This document shows positions 4,605-42,950 of a stretch of 42,950 nucleotides of DNA, piece after piece. This stretch comes from Methanobacteriota archaeon (GTDB lineage Archaea > Thermoplasmatota > Poseidoniia > Poseidoniales > Thalassarchaeaceae): the NCBI GenBank assembly GCA_002725475.1, contig PBPH01000045.1, forward strand, positions 1 to 42,950, read 5' to 3'. The position numbers and the translations under genes are program-made. Position 1 is the first letter of the stretch. Every line of letters starts with the position of its first letter. The notes below the pieces were generated by a model, which did not search any database, was not told where the DNA came from, and was given only the letters and a program-made list of their open reading frames with translations.

Positions 4605-5123
4605 TCACTCTTCTTCATCCACTACTTCCCAATTTTCAGGTGGCCAATCAGGTAAATCAGAGGCTGGCCAGGCCCCTTTTTTGGTGTTAATTCCTTGTTT
4701 TCTGAACGTTTTCTTTGAGCGCCCCCAAACAGGTAATAGAAATCCAATAGTGGATCGTTGGCCAAACGACCATTTCCATGGACATTTGGGAAGTCTCGCA
4801 GTCCATTGTGCAAACAGAACTCGCCACTCTTCTTCAAGATGGTTTGGTATCAACCATTCAATCACAGTCAATGCTCCTGCGGAGCCTTGAACATGGCTAT
4901 ATGCTTCCATTGCAACATCTTTTAGAGGTCCATTTTCAATTACAAGACCAATAGTTCGAGCTCCCTGAGCTAAAGGAACAATCACGGCCCATCTGTCAAC
5001 TAATCTACTACCTTGTATTCTACGACCTGACCAATTTGCCTCTACCACCAGTTCTCGCAGTGCTCGAACTGCATCAGTTGGTGAGATGCAAGCCTCAACT
5101 TTGAGATGACGGGGTACGCTCAC
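4605..5123 (-). CDS. Hypothetical protein with Trp-rich basic C-terminus
   Basis: 172-aa ORF filling the gap in a minus-strand run; no family recognised. Confidence 0.65.
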   Translation of the reverse strand: MSVPRHLKVEACISPTDAVRALRELVVEANWSGRRIQGSRLVDRWAVIVPLAQGARTIGLVIENGPLKDVAMEAYSHVQGSAGALTVIEWLIPNHLEEEWRVLFAQWTARLPKCPWKWSFGQRSTIGFLLPVWGRSKKTFRKQGINTKKGAWPASDLPDWPPENWEVVDEEE

Positions 5124-22986: not shown

Positions 22987-23955
22987 ATGGCCGAAGACCC
23001 ATATCGTGTGCTGGGTGTATCTCCAGAAGCGAGTGACGCTGAGATTAAGCGCGCATATCGTAAACTCGCTAGACAACATCACCCCGATCGTAATCCCGAT
23101 GATGCCGCATCTGAAGGTCGATTCAAGGAAATTCAAGCAGCCTACGATTTAATCGACAATTCCGAAAAGCGCAGGAAATTCGATGAACAAAAGAGGATTT
23201 CCAATATGTTCGGTAGCGGTGCTGGTGGGGATTTCGGTAATTTTGAATTTAACTTTGAAGGGGGCGGGGGGATTGAAGATATTTTAGCGTCATTTTTCGG
23301 TGGAAAGGGAGCAAATCCCTACGCTGGCCAGAGTAGTGGAAGCATATTTGATCAAGGAGGCCGGCCACGTCAATCTCAGCAAACTAGGCCACAAAGGGGT
23401 TCTAACATTGACTCTCCACTTGACCTCAGTTTAGAAGAAGCTCAATCGGGGGTGAAGAAACCATTCACCATATCGAGGCGGAAAGTATGTGAAAAATGCA
23501 GGGGTGGTGGTTGTAGCAAATGTGGTGGCCAAGGAGTGATAAGAAAGACCAGTCAAATCACAGTTACAGTTCCTGCAGGGGCAGAACATGCTTCGGTAAT
23601 GAGATTGAAGGGAATGGGGCACCAATCACCAAACGGTCAAGCAGGAGATCTTCTACTTACTGTCAGGATAGATGCAGATGAAGGAAGAAGTTGGGAAGGT
23701 GGCCGCCTGATTCAGTTGGTAGAAGTATCTTACAGCACAATGATGCTTGGGGGGAAAGCAAGAATTCATACACCAGCAGGAAAGATAGTCGAAGTAGATG
23801 TCCCACCAAATTCACGTTCAGGAGACCGTCGCAGATTAAGAGGTCAAGGATACAACGGTGGCCCATTAGATGTAGAACTGACATTATCAGATTCAACAAC
23901 TCTCACTGCTGAGCAAGAAGCAGCGCTAAAGGCATTGAGAGATAGTGGGCTGTGA
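22987..23955 (+). CDS. dnaJ: DnaJ-family co-chaperone (J domain, G/F region, reduced Zn finger, CTD)
   Basis: DPYRVLGV, AYRKLARQHHPDRN, G/F-rich linker, CEKCRGGGCSKCGGQG, GDLLLTV. Confidence 0.88.
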   Translation: MAEDPYRVLGVSPEASDAEIKRAYRKLARQHHPDRNPDDAASEGRFKEIQAAYDLIDNSEKRRKFDEQKRISNMFGSGAGGDFGNFEFNFEGGGGIEDILASFFGGKGANPYAGQSSGSIFDQGGRPRQSQQTRPQRGSNIDSPLDLSLEEAQSGVKKPFTISRRKVCEKCRGGGCSKCGGQGVIRKTSQITVTVPAGAEHASVMRLKGMGHQSPNGQAGDLLLTVRIDADEGRSWEGGRLIQLVEVSYSTMMLGGKARIHTPAGKIVEVDVPPNSRSGDRRRLRGQGYNGGPLDVELTLSDSTTLTAEQEAALKALRDSGL

Positions 23956-37542: not shown

Positions 37543-38778
37543 TCAACGAAATTTCTGAGCTGATAATTCCAAAGATTCGATTGCAGGCATTCTCTTACCA
37601 GCAAGGAAGGTTAAGCAAGAGCCGCCACCAGTGCTATTATGTCCGACTTTGTCATTCGCCCCTCTTTGATTAACCAGGGTTCCTGTATGGCCACCACCAA
37701 TTATCACAAAAGCATCACTTTCAACACAACTGTTGAGAATTTCAATAGTCCCAAAGGCGAAAATAGATTTTTCAAAATATGATGCTGGACCATTCCAAAG
37801 AACGCATTTTGCATCCATAATTGATGGCCTAATTTTCATTAATGTTCCAATTCCGATATCGTAAATAGGATATTCTGTTGGCAAATCCTCAACCAACAAT
37901 GGAACTCTTTTGTCTTCAACTTCAATGGCTAAATCGATGGGTAATTTCAGTTTATCGAGATGATTTTCTACAATCCAATTTGCCATATTCCAAGTGCGTT
38001 CGAATGCCGACCCAAGCCCGTCTTGAATGAAACCCTCGTTTTCATTGCCCAATTTTTTTCCAGATGCCCATAGCATTAGATTACCTACAACTCCAACAGG
38101 TAGAATGTTGTCAACAACACCTCTCTCAAGAAGGTTGCAGGCAATATCGAGTGAATCATCACATTTGATACCACCTAAAATCACTGTATATGGCCTAGGG
38201 GGGTTTTCAACAGCAGAACCCAAAGTGTCCAATTCGTGTTGGATTAATTTTCCTGCATATGAGGGCAAAACAGTACCAAATCCAGAGATTGTTGGTGAAT
38301 TTCTATGAGCACAAGCAAAAGCATCGCAAACATAGGCATCAGACACACTAGCTAATTTTTGAACAATTTCTGAAGCTCCTAATTCATCTAAACTTGCCTT
38401 TTTCATATCAGTCTCTTCGTGCCAGCCCCTTACATTGTCTAAAAATAGCATATCACCATTATTCATTCCACGAATAGCAGTTAATGCAATTTCACCACAA
38501 ACATCCGGAATAAATTCAACATTTCTTCCCAATAGCACACTCATTAACTCAGCGTGCCTTTCCATGGAAGTAAAGTCAGATTTACCTGGTCTGCTTTGAT
38601 GAGCAAGAAGAACAACTTTCGAACTGCCAAGCGTTCGCAAAGTAGGCATTATTGCCCTAAGCCTAGCATCATCAAGGAATTCATTGGTTTCTGGATTTAA
38701 TGGTGAATTAACGTCTACACGGACAAGAACGGTCTTGCCTGAAAGGTCTGCATCGTCCAGGGTCAGGAACGACCTCAT
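37543..38778 (-). CDS. pgk: Phosphoglycerate kinase (start re-called at 38778)
   Basis: VRVDVNSP, AHQSRPG, DAFACAHR, LGGIK, WNGP, GGGHT, STGGG; SD GGGGGT. Confidence 0.96.
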   Translation of the reverse strand: MRSFLTLDDADLSGKTVLVRVDVNSPLNPETNEFLDDARLRAIMPTLRTLGSSKVVLLAHQSRPGKSDFTSMERHAELMSVLLGRNVEFIPDVCGEIALTAIRGMNNGDMLFLDNVRGWHEETDMKKASLDELGASEIVQKLASVSDAYVCDAFACAHRNSPTISGFGTVLPSYAGKLIQHELDTLGSAVENPPRPYTVILGGIKCDDSLDIACNLLERGVVDNILPVGVVGNLMLWASGKKLGNENEGFIQDGLGSAFERTWNMANWIVENHLDKLKLPIDLAIEVEDKRVPLLVEDLPTEYPIYDIGIGTLMKIRPSIMDAKCVLWNGPASYFEKSIFAFGTIEILNSCVESDAFVIIGGGHTGTLVNQRGANDKVGHNSTGGGSCLTFLAGKRMPAIESLELSAQKFR

Positions 38779-38915
38779 TGTACCCCCGACTTGACACTTG
38801 CCTTTTATCCAAACGGTTGCAAATAGTAGTAATAATTGGAGATGATGGCATCGCGCGCAGCGTTTAGCGAACTCTATATCTACTATCAGTGGTCCTCGCG
38901 CGGAGTGGGGTTGGG

Positions 38916-39875
38916 ATGCCACATAATCGAGAGGGTGGAGCGGACGCACGTTCAAATTCGAGAGACGCGCGCGCAGTACCCCGAACAGCTAAAAAAAGAA
39001 GAGGAACCAAGACATCATCATTTGGGGTTTCAAAGCGAGAAAGTCACGATTCCTCTGAATTTTATGGTTCAACCCTTTACAACGGCTTGCCAAAAGAATC
39101 GGACACTGGTAAGGTGAACGCATTTCCAAAAGATAAGGAGAATCGTGTTTTTTGCGGTGATTCCAGAAATATGCACCAAATTCCAGATAATTCAGTCCAT
39201 TTGATGATAACTTCACCACCATACAATGTAACTAAAACATATGATGATGATCTTGCTTTATCAGAATATTTAGAATTATTGAGATCAGTATTTGATGAAT
39301 GCTATCGAGTATTGGTTCCAGGGGGGAGAGCTTGCATAAATGTCGCAAATCTTGGGAGAAAACCGTACATACCACTATCATCATTTATCAATCAAATAAT
39401 GATTGAAATTGGCTTTTTGCCACGGGGAGAGATAATTTGGAATAAATCAGCTAGTGCGGGAGTTTCTTGCGCATGGGGTTCTTGGAAATCTGCATCAAAC
39501 CCCACTCTGAGAGATGTTCACGAATACATTCTTGTATTTTCTAAAGGGAAATTCAAATTACACCGTTCAAGGGCAGAAAAAGAAGAAGGTAGGCAGGACA
39601 CCGTTGGAAAAGAAGATTTCATAGAGTGGACTAAATCAATCTGGACATTTCCAACAGTTAGTGCAAAGCGTGTAGGTCATCCAGCGCCATTCCCTGTAGA
39701 ACTCCCTCGTCGTTGTATTGAGATGTATTCTTTTGCTGGGGATGTTATTTTAGATCCATTTGCAGGTTCTGGTTCAACAGGGATTGCTGCGAAACAAAAT
39801 AATCGTAAATATCTACTATTTGATATAAGTAAAGAATATTGTGATTTAGCAGAAATGAGAATTTCAGAAACCTAA
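38916..39875 (+). CDS. Orphan beta-class amino-DNA methyltransferase (probably N4-cytosine)
   Basis: Motif IV TSPPY precedes HPAPFP and motif I LDPFAGSGST; no endonuclease gene adjacent. Confidence 0.9.
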   Translation: MPHNREGGADARSNSRDARAVPRTAKKRRGTKTSSFGVSKRESHDSSEFYGSTLYNGLPKESDTGKVNAFPKDKENRVFCGDSRNMHQIPDNSVHLMITSPPYNVTKTYDDDLALSEYLELLRSVFDECYRVLVPGGRACINVANLGRKPYIPLSSFINQIMIEIGFLPRGEIIWNKSASAGVSCAWGSWKSASNPTLRDVHEYILVFSKGKFKLHRSRAEKEEGRQDTVGKEDFIEWTKSIWTFPTVSAKRVGHPAPFPVELPRRCIEMYSFAGDVILDPFAGSGSTGIAAKQNNRKYLLFDISKEYCDLAEMRISET

Positions 39876-39936: not shown

Positions 39937-40698
39937 TTGAGTGTTATGAGAAGTAACCCGCTATTTCGAAAAATGTTTGGCGATTCATTTCCCTCAAGTT
40001 CTAATTTAGCAATTGATTTATGCAATAGAGGTGGGCTTACAAATGATTCTAAATTAATACATCTGGGTTGTGGCACAGGGGGTGTTTCTTCACTATTATA
40101 TTCCAGATTCAATTGTCAAATTATGGGCGTTGACCCCTCGGCCCAACTTATTGACATTGCAAATTCCGAAAGCGCCCGGGGAAGTTTATCATTTGACAAT
40201 TCCCCGTTGCACAAAACCCCTTTTTCTAACTCCGGGGCCACCCATATATTATCCGAAGCCAACCTATCAATTTATCAGCAACCAACTCTATTATTTGATG
40301 AAATTAAGCGTTGCCTAGGTTCCAATGGAATGCTATTAAATTCTGAATTGGTTATTACCGACTCAAGTCTGTTGGATGAGAGAGTCAACAAATTTCTAAG
40401 CACATCTATAGGATCTGGTTTATCTCGAACATTAGACAATTGGAAAATGCTTCTAAGAGAAAATGGTTTTGAAATCATCGAAACACAGATGGAGCCATCA
40501 ATTATGCGTTCAAATGGCAAGAAATTTCGTCGAGCATTGATGGGATTAAATTTACTCAGGAGAACTAAACAATTTTCTTTTTCTGATTTTGGATTGAGTT
40601 CCTTAGAAGATGATTTCGACTCAATAACTAAATCTACATTATCTGCTATTAATGATGGAATTATTACCTATGCTTCGTTCATTTCTCAACCGATTTAA
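39937..40698 (+). CDS. Class I SAM-dependent methyltransferase, divergent
   Basis: LIHLGCGTG, GVDPS, P...TPF, EIKRCL...G. Confidence 0.75.
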   Translation: MSVMRSNPLFRKMFGDSFPSSSNLAIDLCNRGGLTNDSKLIHLGCGTGGVSSLLYSRFNCQIMGVDPSAQLIDIANSESARGSLSFDNSPLHKTPFSNSGATHILSEANLSIYQQPTLLFDEIKRCLGSNGMLLNSELVITDSSLLDERVNKFLSTSIGSGLSRTLDNWKMLLRENGFEIIETQMEPSIMRSNGKKFRRALMGLNLLRRTKQFSFSDFGLSSLEDDFDSITKSTLSAINDGIITYASFISQPI

Positions 40699-40771
40699 AC
40701 AATTTTTGACTACGTCAAAAGGCATTCAACCAAGGGTGACAATAAAATGGGAGCCCTTTTGTGAGAAATCG

Positions 40772-42950
40772 ATGGGTAGCCGTTCAGTACTCTTCATTGC
40801 CGCCGTGATTTTCACATCACTTTTGTTGGGGATGAGCCATGGCAATGCGGAAAACGCTCTCGTCACAAGCCCGAATTACAGTAGTAAAATATCTCCTGCT
40901 GATGCATGGGTGACTTCTGCAGGAGGTTCTGGTTCAGATATGGCTTGGGACATGGTTCTAGATGGACAGGGCAATTCATTTGTCACAGGTTCTTTTTCGG
41001 GCTCAGCCACATTTGGCTCGACCACATTATCTTCGATAGGCGGTATCGATGGTTTCGTCGCAAAGATGGATAATTTAGGAAATTGGGTATGGGCATCTCA
41101 AATTTCAGGAGGATACGATGACTGGGGTTCAGGGATTGATGTTGATACAAATGGTAATGTTTACGTCACTGGCCCTTTCATAAATAATCAAGATTCCACA
41201 TCACCTTCGGTTCAATTGGGTTCTTATTCACTAAATGCCCATTCTCAATCATCCTACGATATGTTCGTTGGGAAATTAGATAGTAGCGGTACTTGGTTGT
41301 GGGCTCAAACCTCAAACAAGTTAACGGAACTTGATCAAGTCACTTGGCAATATGTTGAACAATTTGGACAGGTGTTACCAACTGACATCAAGGTATTCAA
41401 TAATTCAATAACCGTTTCAGGCTCCTACAATGGTAAGATTTACGCTTATTCTGATTCACAAGGTGATTGGTACTATGAGAGCACGAAGGATAATTCTGGA
41501 ATTACTACTACTGATGCATATGTTGGCTTCCTAGGTTTGGATGGAACTTGGGCCTCACAACATGGTTGGGGTGGTATTTCACAAAATGATGCTGCTACAG
41601 CAGTTGCCCCAAGCCCATCAGGTAATTACTGGTATATTGCAGGTTCTTTCGCAAATACAGTTGAATTTATTGGTGGCTCAACCCATTCTTCTAGTGGTGG
41701 CTCACAAGATATTTGGATTATGCAAATTACAGATGGCGGTGAAGTCGAGTGGGTAATTTCTGCAGGAGGTTCTGGGGCAGATACACTCAGAGATATGGTA
41801 GTAGATAGTTCAGACTCGCTCTACGCTGTAGGCGAGTTTGAAGGCTCTTTGGCTGCATTTGGCACTCATAGGCTCACCTCGAATTCAGGCGGTTCAGATG
41901 TTTGGGCAGGTAAAGTTGGCGTTTCCAATAATTGGCTTTGGGCCAAGCAAGGCGGTGGGGCAAGTGATGATATGGGGTTCTCAATAGCACTTTCACCAGA
42001 TGAATCTGCAGTTTATTCGGTGGGTCAAATTTCAGGGCAAGTAACCTTTGAAAATAGTGGTGCAAGTCAGCTTGCAACATCTAATGGACCATCAGATGCT
42101 TTCGTTGCCATTTCATCGTCTTCCACGGGTGAGTGGGAAGATGTGTTTGTTGCAGGGGGCCCTTCAGCAGGTGACCGTGCCTGGGCTATAGGAATAGACT
42201 CTCAGAACATTACTCACACAGCAGGTAGATTCAAGGGCACTAGTAACGGGTTGGCAGAGTTCGGATCTGATGACATTTCGAGTGCCGGTGATTTCGACAT
42301 CTTTGTTTGGAAAGGTCTCATAGAAGACGACGATGATGATAGAGTTGCTAATGAGGATGATGATTGCCCTCAGGTTTGGGGTAATGCTACCGTTTCACCA
42401 CACATTGGATGCCCCGATGCTGATGGTGACGGCTACGCGGATGTAGACGACACACATCCATCAGAACCAACTCAGTGGCGAGATCAAGATGGTGATGGCT
42501 TTGGCGACAATCCACTAGGTAATTTAGCAGATGATTGCCCTACAATTAATGGGACATCTACTATTGATTTGACTGGATGCATAGACACTGATGGAGATGG
42601 CTGGTCTGACCAGAGGGATGCATTTCCAATAGAACCCACCCAGTGGAATGACAGTGACGGTGATAATTACGGAGATAATTGGAATGACGATGAATTAACT
42701 CCAAATTTCGGGACTCTAGGATTGGGGGAGTATATTTTTGGCGCAATTGATATGGATTATTGTCCAACACTTCCTGGTGTAGATACATTTGACAACCCAG
42801 GATGTCCAGATTCTGACGGGGATGGCTGGTCTGATGTAACGGACGATTTCATCAATAATCCAACTCAATGGAAGGATAGTGATGGTGATGGTTGGGGAGA
42901 CAACTCATCAACAGGAGCAACTCAAGGAGACGATCTTCCATTTGATGAAA
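40772..42950 (+). CDS. Large surface protein with SBBP-like beta-propeller and thrombospondin type-3 repeats (3' truncated; absent from ORF track)
   Basis: Own translation: MGSRSVLFIAAVIFTSLLLG signal; AGGSGSD...DGQGNSFVTGSF repeats; DCP...GCPDADGDG repeats; same frame at window end (NSSTGATQGDDLPFDE). Confidence 0.85.
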   Translation, partial: MGSRSVLFIAAVIFTSLLLGMSHGNAENALVTSPNYSSKISPADAWVTSAGGSGSDMAWDMVLDGQGNSFVTGSFSGSATFGSTTLSSIGGIDGFVAKMDNLGNWVWASQISGGYDDWGSGIDVDTNGNVYVTGPFINNQDSTSPSVQLGSYSLNAHSQSSYDMFVGKLDSSGTWLWAQTSNKLTELDQVTWQYVEQFGQVLPTDIKVFNNSITVSGSYNGKIYAYSDSQGDWYYESTKDNSGITTTDAYVGFLGLDGTWASQHGWGGISQNDAATAVAPSPSGNYWYIAGSFANTVEFIGGSTHSSSGGSQDIWIMQITDGGEVEWVISAGGSGADTLRDMVVDSSDSLYAVGEFEGSLAAFGTHRLTSNSGGSDVWAGKVGVSNNWLWAKQGGGASDDMGFSIALSPDESAVYSVGQISGQVTFENSGASQLATSNGPSDAFVAISSSSTGEWEDVFVAGGPSAGDRAWAIGIDSQNITHTAGRFKGTSNGLAEFGSDDISSAGDFDIFVWKGLIEDDDDDRVANEDDDCPQVWGNATVSPHIGCPDADGDGYADVDDTHPSEPTQWRDQDGDGFGDNPLGNLADDCPTINGTSTIDLTGCIDTDGDGWSDQRDAFPIEPTQWNDSDGDNYGDNWNDDELTPNFGTLGLGEYIFGAIDMDYCPTLPGVDTFDNPGCPDSDGDGWSDVTDDFINNPTQWKDSDGDGWGDNSSTGATQGDDLPFDE

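Follow-up and report, generated by a model that had tools for sequence, protein, structure and literature searches.

This work concerns an orphan DNA methylase gene of the archaeal order Poseidoniales and the cluster of alternating CG tracts that lies around its promoter and start codon. The gene is carried by the window, the whole stretch of 42,950 bases that was analysed, which is the entire contig C26 (PBPH01000045.1) of assembly G000 (GCA_002725475.1; 1.52 Mb, 113 contigs, 70% complete, 42% G+C), and it is divergent to pgk, the gene for phosphoglycerate kinase. The tracts are rich in CGCG, the predicted target of the enzyme, and the reading that we prefer, with modest confidence, is that the methylase controls its own synthesis through its own target sites in its own promoter.

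Among the closest described systems is the ThaI restriction-modification system of Thermoplasma acidophilum. ThaI cuts CGCG and M.ThaI makes N4-methylcytosine (m4C) at CGCG, according to the REBASE data tabulated in the available part of PMC11033074. The window's methylase belongs to the same PF01555 family, with the same beta motif order, an SPPY motif and a predicted m4C mark at CGCG, but it has no nuclease, holds a fixed place beside pgk and carries an N-terminal extension. Its promoter is full of CGCG, whereas 13 of the 18 non-Poseidoniales Thermoplasmatota orthologs measured, seven of the 18 being nuclease-linked, have none between −300 and +60 and lie in CGCG-poor DNA; the few with CGCG lie in DNA of 55-66% G+C.

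CcrM of Caulobacter is a cell-cycle-regulated orphan that makes N6-methyladenine (m6A), has GANTC sites in its own promoter and is regulated by CtrA and GcrA. It is a conserved alphaproteobacterial orphan according to the available part of PMC8919816. Like CcrM, the window's methylase is a conserved orphan among core genes with its own predicted sites at its own promoter, which suggests expression coupled to the methylation (replication) state. It differs in being archaeal and in its predicted m4C mark, and the homology is limited to the PF01555 fold (6pbd, E = 6.5e-10, C-terminal 66 residues only).

The bacterial system CfrBI was reportedly the subject of an earlier study by Beletskaya in 2000. 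Its divergent methylase and nuclease genes have a single site in their shared promoter region, methylation of which regulates expression, and expression of the methylase inhibits its own expression (bioRxiv 10.64898/2025.12.04.692298, in the part available). The locus described here likewise has a divergent promoter region bearing the methylase's own, in this case predicted, target. CfrBI is however bacterial and sigma-70 dependent, with one site and a nuclease as the divergent partner, whereas here there is a predicted archaeal promoter with a B recognition element (BRE) and TATA box, two to eight sites, an orphan gene, and a divergent glycolytic gene that does not own the sites.

The EcoRII, SsoII, MspI and LlaDII methylases repress their own promoters by binding, judging from the titles cited in PMC3874152. 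A cluster of cognate sites over the BRE/TATA and start would allow the enzyme described here to be its own repressor in the same way, but those are 5-methylcytosine or other enzymes of bacterial restriction-modification systems. Some self-repressing methylases rely on an N-terminal helix-turn-helix dedicated to this; the extension here, by contrast, has ~22 residues and is short, basic and poorly conserved.

Persistent m4C orphans of archaea have also been described, namely HG1 (CTAG) in Halobacteria and HG12 (CGCG) in Nitrososphaera, and their function is called unknown in the available part of PMC10609329. The methylase described here resembles both in its four-base palindromic predicted m4C target, its orphan state and its vertical retention in a whole taxon, and it shares its predicted target with HG12; it differs from HG12 in that a consistent promoter cluster was not found in seven Nitrososphaeraceae loci. 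Poseidoniales are not covered in the available part of that survey, which makes no mention of a self-site promoter cluster or of autoregulation. CGCG m4C and an M.ThaI-like orphan methylase in Poseidoniia are already published in the methylomes of metagenome-assembled genomes (MAGs) of PMC8919816, and no description of a promoter built around its own target across Poseidoniales was found in the literature searched. By analogy, the locus would be an archaeal, m4C, multi-site variant of a circuit type known from bacteria.

CG tracts at the methylase promoter

The methylase gene, its putative promoter elements and the tracts are as follows; the tracts were located by direct reading and counting.

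38916..39875, + strand: orphan methylase, predicted to be an M.ThaI-family beta-class N4-cytosine DNA methylase, 319 residues, PF01555 at 1.3e-51
38852-38858, no strand: tract 1, CGCGCGC, 8 nt upstream of the BRE-like element of the methylase
38866..38882, + strand: putative methylase BRE (AGCGAAC) and TATA box (TCTATATCTA), from archaeal promoter grammar
38897-38902, no strand: tract 2, CGCGCG, 17 nt past the TATA box, in or beside the putative initially melted region and transcription start
38966-38974, no strand: tract 3, CGCGCGCGC, in codons 17-20 (D-A-R-A) of the poorly conserved N-terminal extension

A sequence-only reading of the window had reported three (CG)n tracts with seven overlapping CGCG and six GCGC in 123 bp. 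Counting confirmed this, the CGCG starting at 38852, 38854, 38897, 38899, 38966, 38968 and 38970, with the TATA-like TATATCTA read directly at 38875-38882; the totals for the window are 36 CGCG and 54 GCGC. It had also seen no other CGCGCG run in the window, which holds for CGCGCG as such, since all four of these words are inside the three tracts, with the correction that two alternating 6-mers in the GCGCGC register are present at 23049 and 30313.

First-order Markov simulation of the window, repeated 1000 times, gave at most five CGCG per 123 bp, a value reached three times, and never seven. Dinucleotide-preserving shuffles of the 288-nt spacer between pgk and the methylase gave a mean of 1.87 CGCG against the seven observed, and none of 1000 reached seven. 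Chance is excluded as the source of the cluster. The whole assembly has 94 alternating runs of at least 6 nt, and only one other place, C109:2229-2372, with seven CGCG in 123 bp.

The methylase and its predicted target

The PF01555 (N6_N4_Mtase) match covers the profile over its full length (positions 1-220 of 221). The translation shows the beta motif order, with SPPY preceding the FxGxG-type motif; TSPPYN lies ~190 residues before DPFAGSGST, and an SPPY motif is typical of m4C enzymes. The closest solved structure is 2zie (3e-33). The start-region block GGGG[T/C][T/C]GGGATGCC is invariant among the aligned orthologs, and the true start is therefore taken to be the conserved ATG at 38916 and not the GTG at 38889.

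Orthologs were sought in G000 and in 250 other Thermoplasmatota genomes that are at least 85% complete. Identities among these 251 genomes are distributed bimodally, at 54-100% and then at 43% or less. The methylase of the complete single-contig genome G198, a 57% ortholog in this search, is 56% identical to the window protein over 297 residues and directly follows a 216-residue open reading frame (ORF) that matches PF15514, 'Restriction endonuclease ThaI', over its full length (420 bits, 1.8e-126); the G198 methylase was assigned to the M.ThaI family because of this neighbour. ThaI-type nuclease homologues adjoin 14 of 37 non-Poseidoniales orthologous loci. A contig scan with the G198 methylase returned 21 relatives in other phyla, the Nitrososphaera homologues being 62-63% identical.

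The mark itself has been recorded in related organisms. In the parts of PMC8919816 and its supplement that were available, CGCG m4C is listed for the marine Euryarchaeota MAGs P1, P2, P3, P8 and P9, and for CM1_5m.P47 (Euryarchaeota, 42% GC), whose orphan methylase has M.ThaI as its top REBASE match (53.6%). In CM1_5m.P78 (Ca. Poseidoniia) CGCG m4C was found at 4910 of 8402 sites, and its orphan methylase, with M.ThaI again the top REBASE match (46.9%), is annotated 'motif detected: Yes'.

From the kinship to a methylase paired with a ThaI nuclease and from these Poseidoniia methylomes it follows that the target of the window enzyme is very probably CGCG and its mark m4C. The sequence-only reading had left the choice between CGCG and GCGC open with a leaning to the former, and this leaning is strongly supported by the homology, the published methylomes and the enrichment of isolated sites. 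The comparison set 27 pgk-linked spacers, each taken from the pgk ATG up to methylase residue 60, against the remainder of their loci: isolated CGCG is enriched 2.6-2.8x and isolated GCGC 1.1-1.2x.

Orphan status and persistence

The ThaI nuclease family PF15514 was not found in any of 101 Poseidoniales genomes, 55 of which are at least 90% complete, and ThaI-type nuclease homologues flank none of 32 Poseidoniales methylase loci. The methylase is an orphan in Poseidoniales; a nuclease of another, unrecognised family could be encoded elsewhere. It is flanked by pgk and by a downstream gene for a class I S-adenosylmethionine (SAM) methyltransferase, and the surrounding genes of the window are housekeeping genes (L1, L10, Spt5, FtsZ, KsgA, Pus10, DnaJ). 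The earlier description of the gene as a beta-class SPPY methylase without a nuclease and embedded among core genes is upheld by the family match, the motif order, the missing PF15514 and these flanks.

Homologues of the methylase carry the names Candidatus Poseidoniales or Poseidoniaceae in their sources. Orthologs are present in 35 of 37 genomes of family f3 (at least 85% complete). In family f1 they are present in 5 of 20 overall; genera g1, g3 and g8 are all positive, and in g2, g5, g6, g9, g11, g12 and g13 the methylase has been lost and pgk retained. Pgk is divergent to the methylase in 27 of the 32 loci, and lies within 700 nt of it in 17 of 20 further f3 loci. Judged from this gene order and distribution, the orphan methylase is vertically inherited and has a fixed place beside pgk across the order. 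One same-genus genome has a 66%-identical copy away from pgk with no CGCG upstream (L020, G011:C35), which may have come in by transfer as a replacement.

The tracts go with the methylase and not with pgk

The divergent neighbour has the following features.

37543..38778, − strand: pgk, PF00162 at 4.5e-97, the syntenic anchor of the locus
38801..38810, − strand: putative pgk TATA box, GGATAAAAGG on the minus strand, ~25 nt before the pgk ATG

In an alignment of 17 orthologous spacers the pgk TATA region forms a conserved block, CCTTTTAT/CATTTTA, and the distance from TATA to ATG suggests that the pgk mRNA is leaderless.

Thirty pgk loci from family f1 were compared. Within 300 nt upstream of pgk, CGCG occurs 3-12 times in the nine with the methylase and 0-2 times (nine in all) in the 21 without it, which have no run of 6 nt or longer. 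In locus L026 an insertion of 1.3 kb parts pgk from the methylase, and the tracts stay beside the methylase. A role of the tracts in pgk regulation is ruled out by the methylase-less loci and L026, and for the same reason the sites are a property of the methylase promoter and not of pgk. The sequence-only reading had pointed out that the pgk promoter shares the spacer; pgk is indeed divergent across it, but the tracts are not its own. As a separate observation, loci from methylase-less f1 genomes seem to hold little CGCG given their G+C, one example being 4-5 CGCG in 4.2 kb at 53-55% G+C.

Conservation within the genus

The blocks conserved across the genus are the pgk TATA region, the methylase BRE/TATA (as TGCGAACTCTATAAGAA), the start block, ACGCGCGCGCAGT and a CTCGCG(CG) positioned 17 nt beyond the TATA box. 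Only L001 and L013-L017 have tract 1, in the form TCGCGCGCA[A/G]CG[T/G]TT. Of 15 orthologs from g1 and sister genera, 14 retain the CTCGCG of tract 2; the tract is often down to a bare CGCG (L002, L011, L012, L016), and it is lost in L017. Fourteen of the 17 aligned orthologs have tract 3 unchanged, as ACGCGCGCGCAGT, with one substitution in L013 and divergence in L014 and L015, and its flanks are variable.

Codon usage in the methylase gene allows tract 3 to be examined further. Among 13 orthologs there are 183 degenerate columns with an invariant amino acid, of which 11 are codon-invariant; only four of the 109 that are four- or six-fold degenerate are codon-invariant, and these include the tract 3 codons Ala18 (GCG) and Ala20 (GCA). 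Arg19 is CGC in 12 of the 13. Judged by these frozen synonymous sites, selection acts on tract 3 as DNA, within the coding sequence. A third codon-invariant alanine of the variable N-terminal extension, codon 9 (GCG, 38940-38942), is outside any CGCG; its context (A/G)GCG(G/A)A is conserved and some orthologs can form a GGAGC-N4-GCTCC hairpin there.

Such constraint could also be expected of an RNA structure, in which tracts 2 and 3 (CUCGCGC and GCGCG.AG) would pair across ~63 nt of the mRNA, enclose the Shine-Dalgarno-like GGGGUUGGG and the AUG, and throttle translation. RNAalifold drew a helix of 7 bp on 10 orthologs, each arm is conserved across the genus, and tract 3 has the frozen synonymous sites described above. 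However, every pair of the helix either never varies or is broken, and compensatory changes are absent; folding of the single sequence does not beat that of shuffles (z = 0.30, with 121 of 200 shuffles equally or more stable), and no Rfam family matched at 38000-39600. Nor can an mRNA structure account for sites upstream of the promoter, as with tract 1 and, in family f3, with the sites ahead of the BRE/TATA of a gene whose mRNA looks leaderless (see below). We regard this explanation as improbable.

Enrichment and layout across Poseidoniales

All 27 pgk-linked spacers have at least two separate CGCG-containing sites (2-8). CGCG is the most enriched of the 256 four-mers, at 8.4x in 11 representatives and 9.0x in all 27, followed by GCGC (5.1x) and TATA (~3x). 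CCGG (0.5-0.7x), GGCC (0.7-0.8x), TCGA and ACGT show no enrichment. In 20 further f3 loci there are 2-6 CGCG each, with 86 CGCG in 5.2 kb upstream of the methylase and 60 in the ~31 kb of the rest.

The f3 spacer cannot be aligned with that of the window's genus, yet it has the same layout; common to the two families are a CG run ahead of the BRE/TATA and CGCG sites in or close to the BRE, the transcription start or the start codon. In f3 the equivalent of the BRE/TATA is G[G/C]CGCGAAAGGTGATAWAG and the upstream element is (A/C)CGCGCGTC, a CGCGCG-containing run being present in 19 of the 20 newly fetched loci. This run is located at −117 to −134 from the anchor equivalent to TSSFG in 18 of the 20; the only run of L146 is at −66, and L156 has GCGCG. 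A GCGCG or CGCG overlaps the BRE edge in 15 of 20 loci, within GGCGCGAAAGGTGATAWAG and 23-25 nt beyond the upstream run, giving the composite element CGCGCGTC-N15-GGCGCGAAAGG. The BRE-overlapping version of the promoter reads GGCGCGAAAGGTGATA and the f3 start ATGGCGCGCG. The loci without a BRE-edge site have a CGCG just past the TATA box and another at the start codon (ATGGC[G/A]CGCGAA). The ATG lies ~27 nt after the TATA box, so the f3 methylase mRNA is probably leaderless. The methylase's own predicted recognition sites are thus inside its predicted core promoter, conserved among orthologs and at positions fixed relative to the BRE/TATA.

As CGCG and GCGC, that is alternating CG, head the enrichment list, and as the tracts lie between divergent promoters and are gone when the divergent methylase gene is absent, they could be structural DNA with no sequence-specific reader, either Z-DNA-prone or forming hard-to-melt GC clamps that buffer supercoiling between the two promoters. 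The runs are however only 4-9 nt long and several of the conserved sites are a bare CGCG, other GC-rich words such as CCGG and GGCC are unenriched, and the positions are fixed to the BRE/TATA and not to the spacer. In addition, the tracts of L026 persist by the methylase with pgk 1.3 kb away, and tract 3 is inside the gene. This explanation is very improbable indeed.

CGCG elsewhere in the genome and a second promoter

By a crude ORF-based gene call, CGCG is mildly over-represented between genes in G000, with 17.5% of sites in the 12.9% of sequence that is non-coding, and CGCGCG is not enriched there (8 of 50 words). CGCG was considered as a genome-wide promoter element and rejected on these figures. 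Most other CGCG clusters in the assembly are at tRNAs or other GC-rich non-coding stretches or inside genes. Avoidance of the target is weak (observed/expected 0.78 for CGCG and 0.99 for GCGC) and carries no diagnostic weight.

One other promoter has a similar arrangement. The region C109:2261-2407 (L115) is upstream of C109:2068-2259 (− strand), a gene for a small coiled-coil protein of 63 residues without a Pfam family. In this promoter CGCGCGCGCCGCGCGTA is positioned 18 nt before an invariant TATA box (ACATTATATGC), with a CGCG just past the TATA. The cluster is present in four genomes of the genus, with 9, 13, 8 and 11 CGCG in the 500 nt after rtcB, and is absent from other genera with or without the methylase. 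There were no Rfam matches at C109:1900-2800.

Proposed self-site feedback and a possible separate regulator

Under the preferred reading, self-site feedback, the nuclease partner would have been lost in Poseidoniales and the core promoter of the methylase would have gained a conserved cluster of the enzyme's own target sites. From the usual archaeal distance between TATA and start, transcription would begin at or just after tract 2. The sites would then lie 8-25 nt upstream of the BRE, at the BRE edge or in the stretch from TATA to start, and in the initially melted region or at the start codon, with an extra site ~50 nt into the coding region in the window's genus. N4-methyl groups project into the major groove. 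Transcription factor B (TFB) and RNA polymerase make their contacts with the BRE and the initially melted region there, and either these groups or the methylase bound to its sites may alter initiation at the methylase promoter. The amount of methylase made would in this way follow how far the DNA is methylated; it could, for instance, go up after replication, when sites are un- or hemimethylated, and come down once modification is complete. Where transcription starts, which sign the feedback has and what reads the sites, be it the basal machinery, the methylase or another protein, are inferred. A search of sequencing runs for the locus matched 20 DNA runs and no RNA runs.

Several observations weigh against self-site feedback. 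The relatives compared are kin, such that ortholog counts overstate independence, and all the genomes are MAGs. Within the genus, tract 1 is replaced by AT-rich sequence in L002-L012 and is absent from 10 of 13 same-genus orthologs. The Poseidoniales copies that are unlinked to pgk (L020, L021) have 0-1 CGCG. Seven Nitrososphaeraceae orphan loci have 4, 2, 0, 0, 0, 1 and 3 CGCG in −200..+30, and the SAR202 and Dehalococcoidia methylase loci have none. Alternating runs of at least 5 nt are enriched 9.6x, against the lower figure for isolated CGCG, and CGCGCGT(C) or its complement, found again in the f3 upstream element, in tracts 2 and 3 and at the C109 promoter, fits a separate protein at least as well as the methylase.

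The expectation of the sequence-only reading that orthologs would keep the tracts is borne out inside Poseidoniales, by the 27 spacers and the 20 f3 loci. It fails for tract 1 in most of the genus, and the nuclease-linked, Nitrososphaeraceae and SAR202 orthologs are without the design. Self-site clusters as a general rule for orphan CGCG methylases were considered and are ruled out by the Nitrososphaeraceae and SAR202/Dehalococcoidia loci.

The preference for longer runs raises the alternative that the tracts are operators for a separate DNA-binding regulator reading a longer word, approximately CGCGCGT[C/A] or its complement. The methylase target inside this word would be either incidental or a means of making binding methylation-sensitive. 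In agreement with this, CGCGCGTC stands at the near-constant 23-25 nt before the BRE-edge GCGCG across f3, tract 3 is its reverse complement, GACGCGCG, and several orthologs have CGCGCGTA in tract 2; the promoter of the 63-residue coiled-coil gene has the same layout, conserved in four genomes of the genus, and other orphan CGCG methylases are without clusters. On the other hand, the tracts vanish wherever the methylase is absent, the top-enriched four-mer is exactly the predicted methylase target, and the site is down to a bare CGCG in some orthologs. The locus has no linked gene that would be a candidate regulator. CGCGCGT/ACGCGCG has only 28 occurrences in the assembly, most of them within genes and a handful intergenic, and CGCGCG, as noted, is not enriched between genes. 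We consider a separate regulator unlikely, though a serious contender. Such a factor would probably still be methylation-sensitive, so that the two readings overlap; methylation-sensitive binding has precedents in OxyR or Lrp at Dam sites.

Self-site feedback has also a more far-reaching form, in which CGCG N4-methylation is a true epigenetic signal and the methylase promoter its sensor, giving a replication-coupled pulse of methylase and a small regulon in the genus. Here the CGCGCGT(C)-type elements would be read in a methylation-dependent manner by TFB/RNA polymerase, the methylase or another factor, and the system would be an archaeal counterpart of the CcrM oscillator, its regulon including at least the coiled-coil gene C109:2068-2259. 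No earlier methylation feedback loop on a BRE/TATA promoter of archaea would then have been described, and this one would belong to one of the most abundant archaeal groups of the surface ocean. This is put forward tentatively, as a doubtful extension.

Other methylases and neighbouring genes

The most avoided four-mers in G000 are GATC (observed/expected 0.45) and AGCT (0.53), well below CGCG. GATC m6A and weak AGCT modification are listed for Poseidoniia in the available part of PMC8919816. No PF02086 (Dam-type) or PF00145 (C5) methylase gene was found in the 70%-complete assembly, and its other methylases are a second PF01555 gene on contig C45 and a THUMP-type RNA methylase. The C45 gene (C45:10251-11030; L032:1426-2205) encodes 259 residues with an SPPY motif and overlaps the stop of an upstream secreted-looking gene of 352 residues; it is a candidate source of the GTAC m4C mark known in some Poseidoniia MAGs.

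In loci L061, L062, L064, L065, L069, L071 and L072 (Methanobacterium, Methanoperedens, Chloroflexota and others) M.ThaI-like methylases follow a non-ThaI ORF. These ORFs share the tail ...KE.TYE.KAE.FL.L... and may represent a second nuclease family paired with this methylase family.

Beyond the methylase in the window, 40652-42949 (+ strand, running off the contig end) encodes a secreted protein of large size, whose many Asp-rich calcium-binding repeats of the DxDGDG type resemble thrombospondin type 3 by eye. Its gene shares 47 nt with the end of the class I SAM methyltransferase gene.

Significance of the locus

Whole orders of archaea retain orphan m4C methylases, and this locus gives a concrete and testable handle on why, as the predicted target is the most enriched word in the enzyme's own promoter, in one of the most abundant orders of planktonic archaea, whose members are uncultured. 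Self-site feedback, if true, would account for the safe and steady level at which an orphan methylase can be kept in the absence of a nuclease. It would also extend methylation-based gene control, so far bacterial (CcrM, Dam, CfrBI), to the eukaryote-like transcription machinery of archaea and to N4-methylcytosine.

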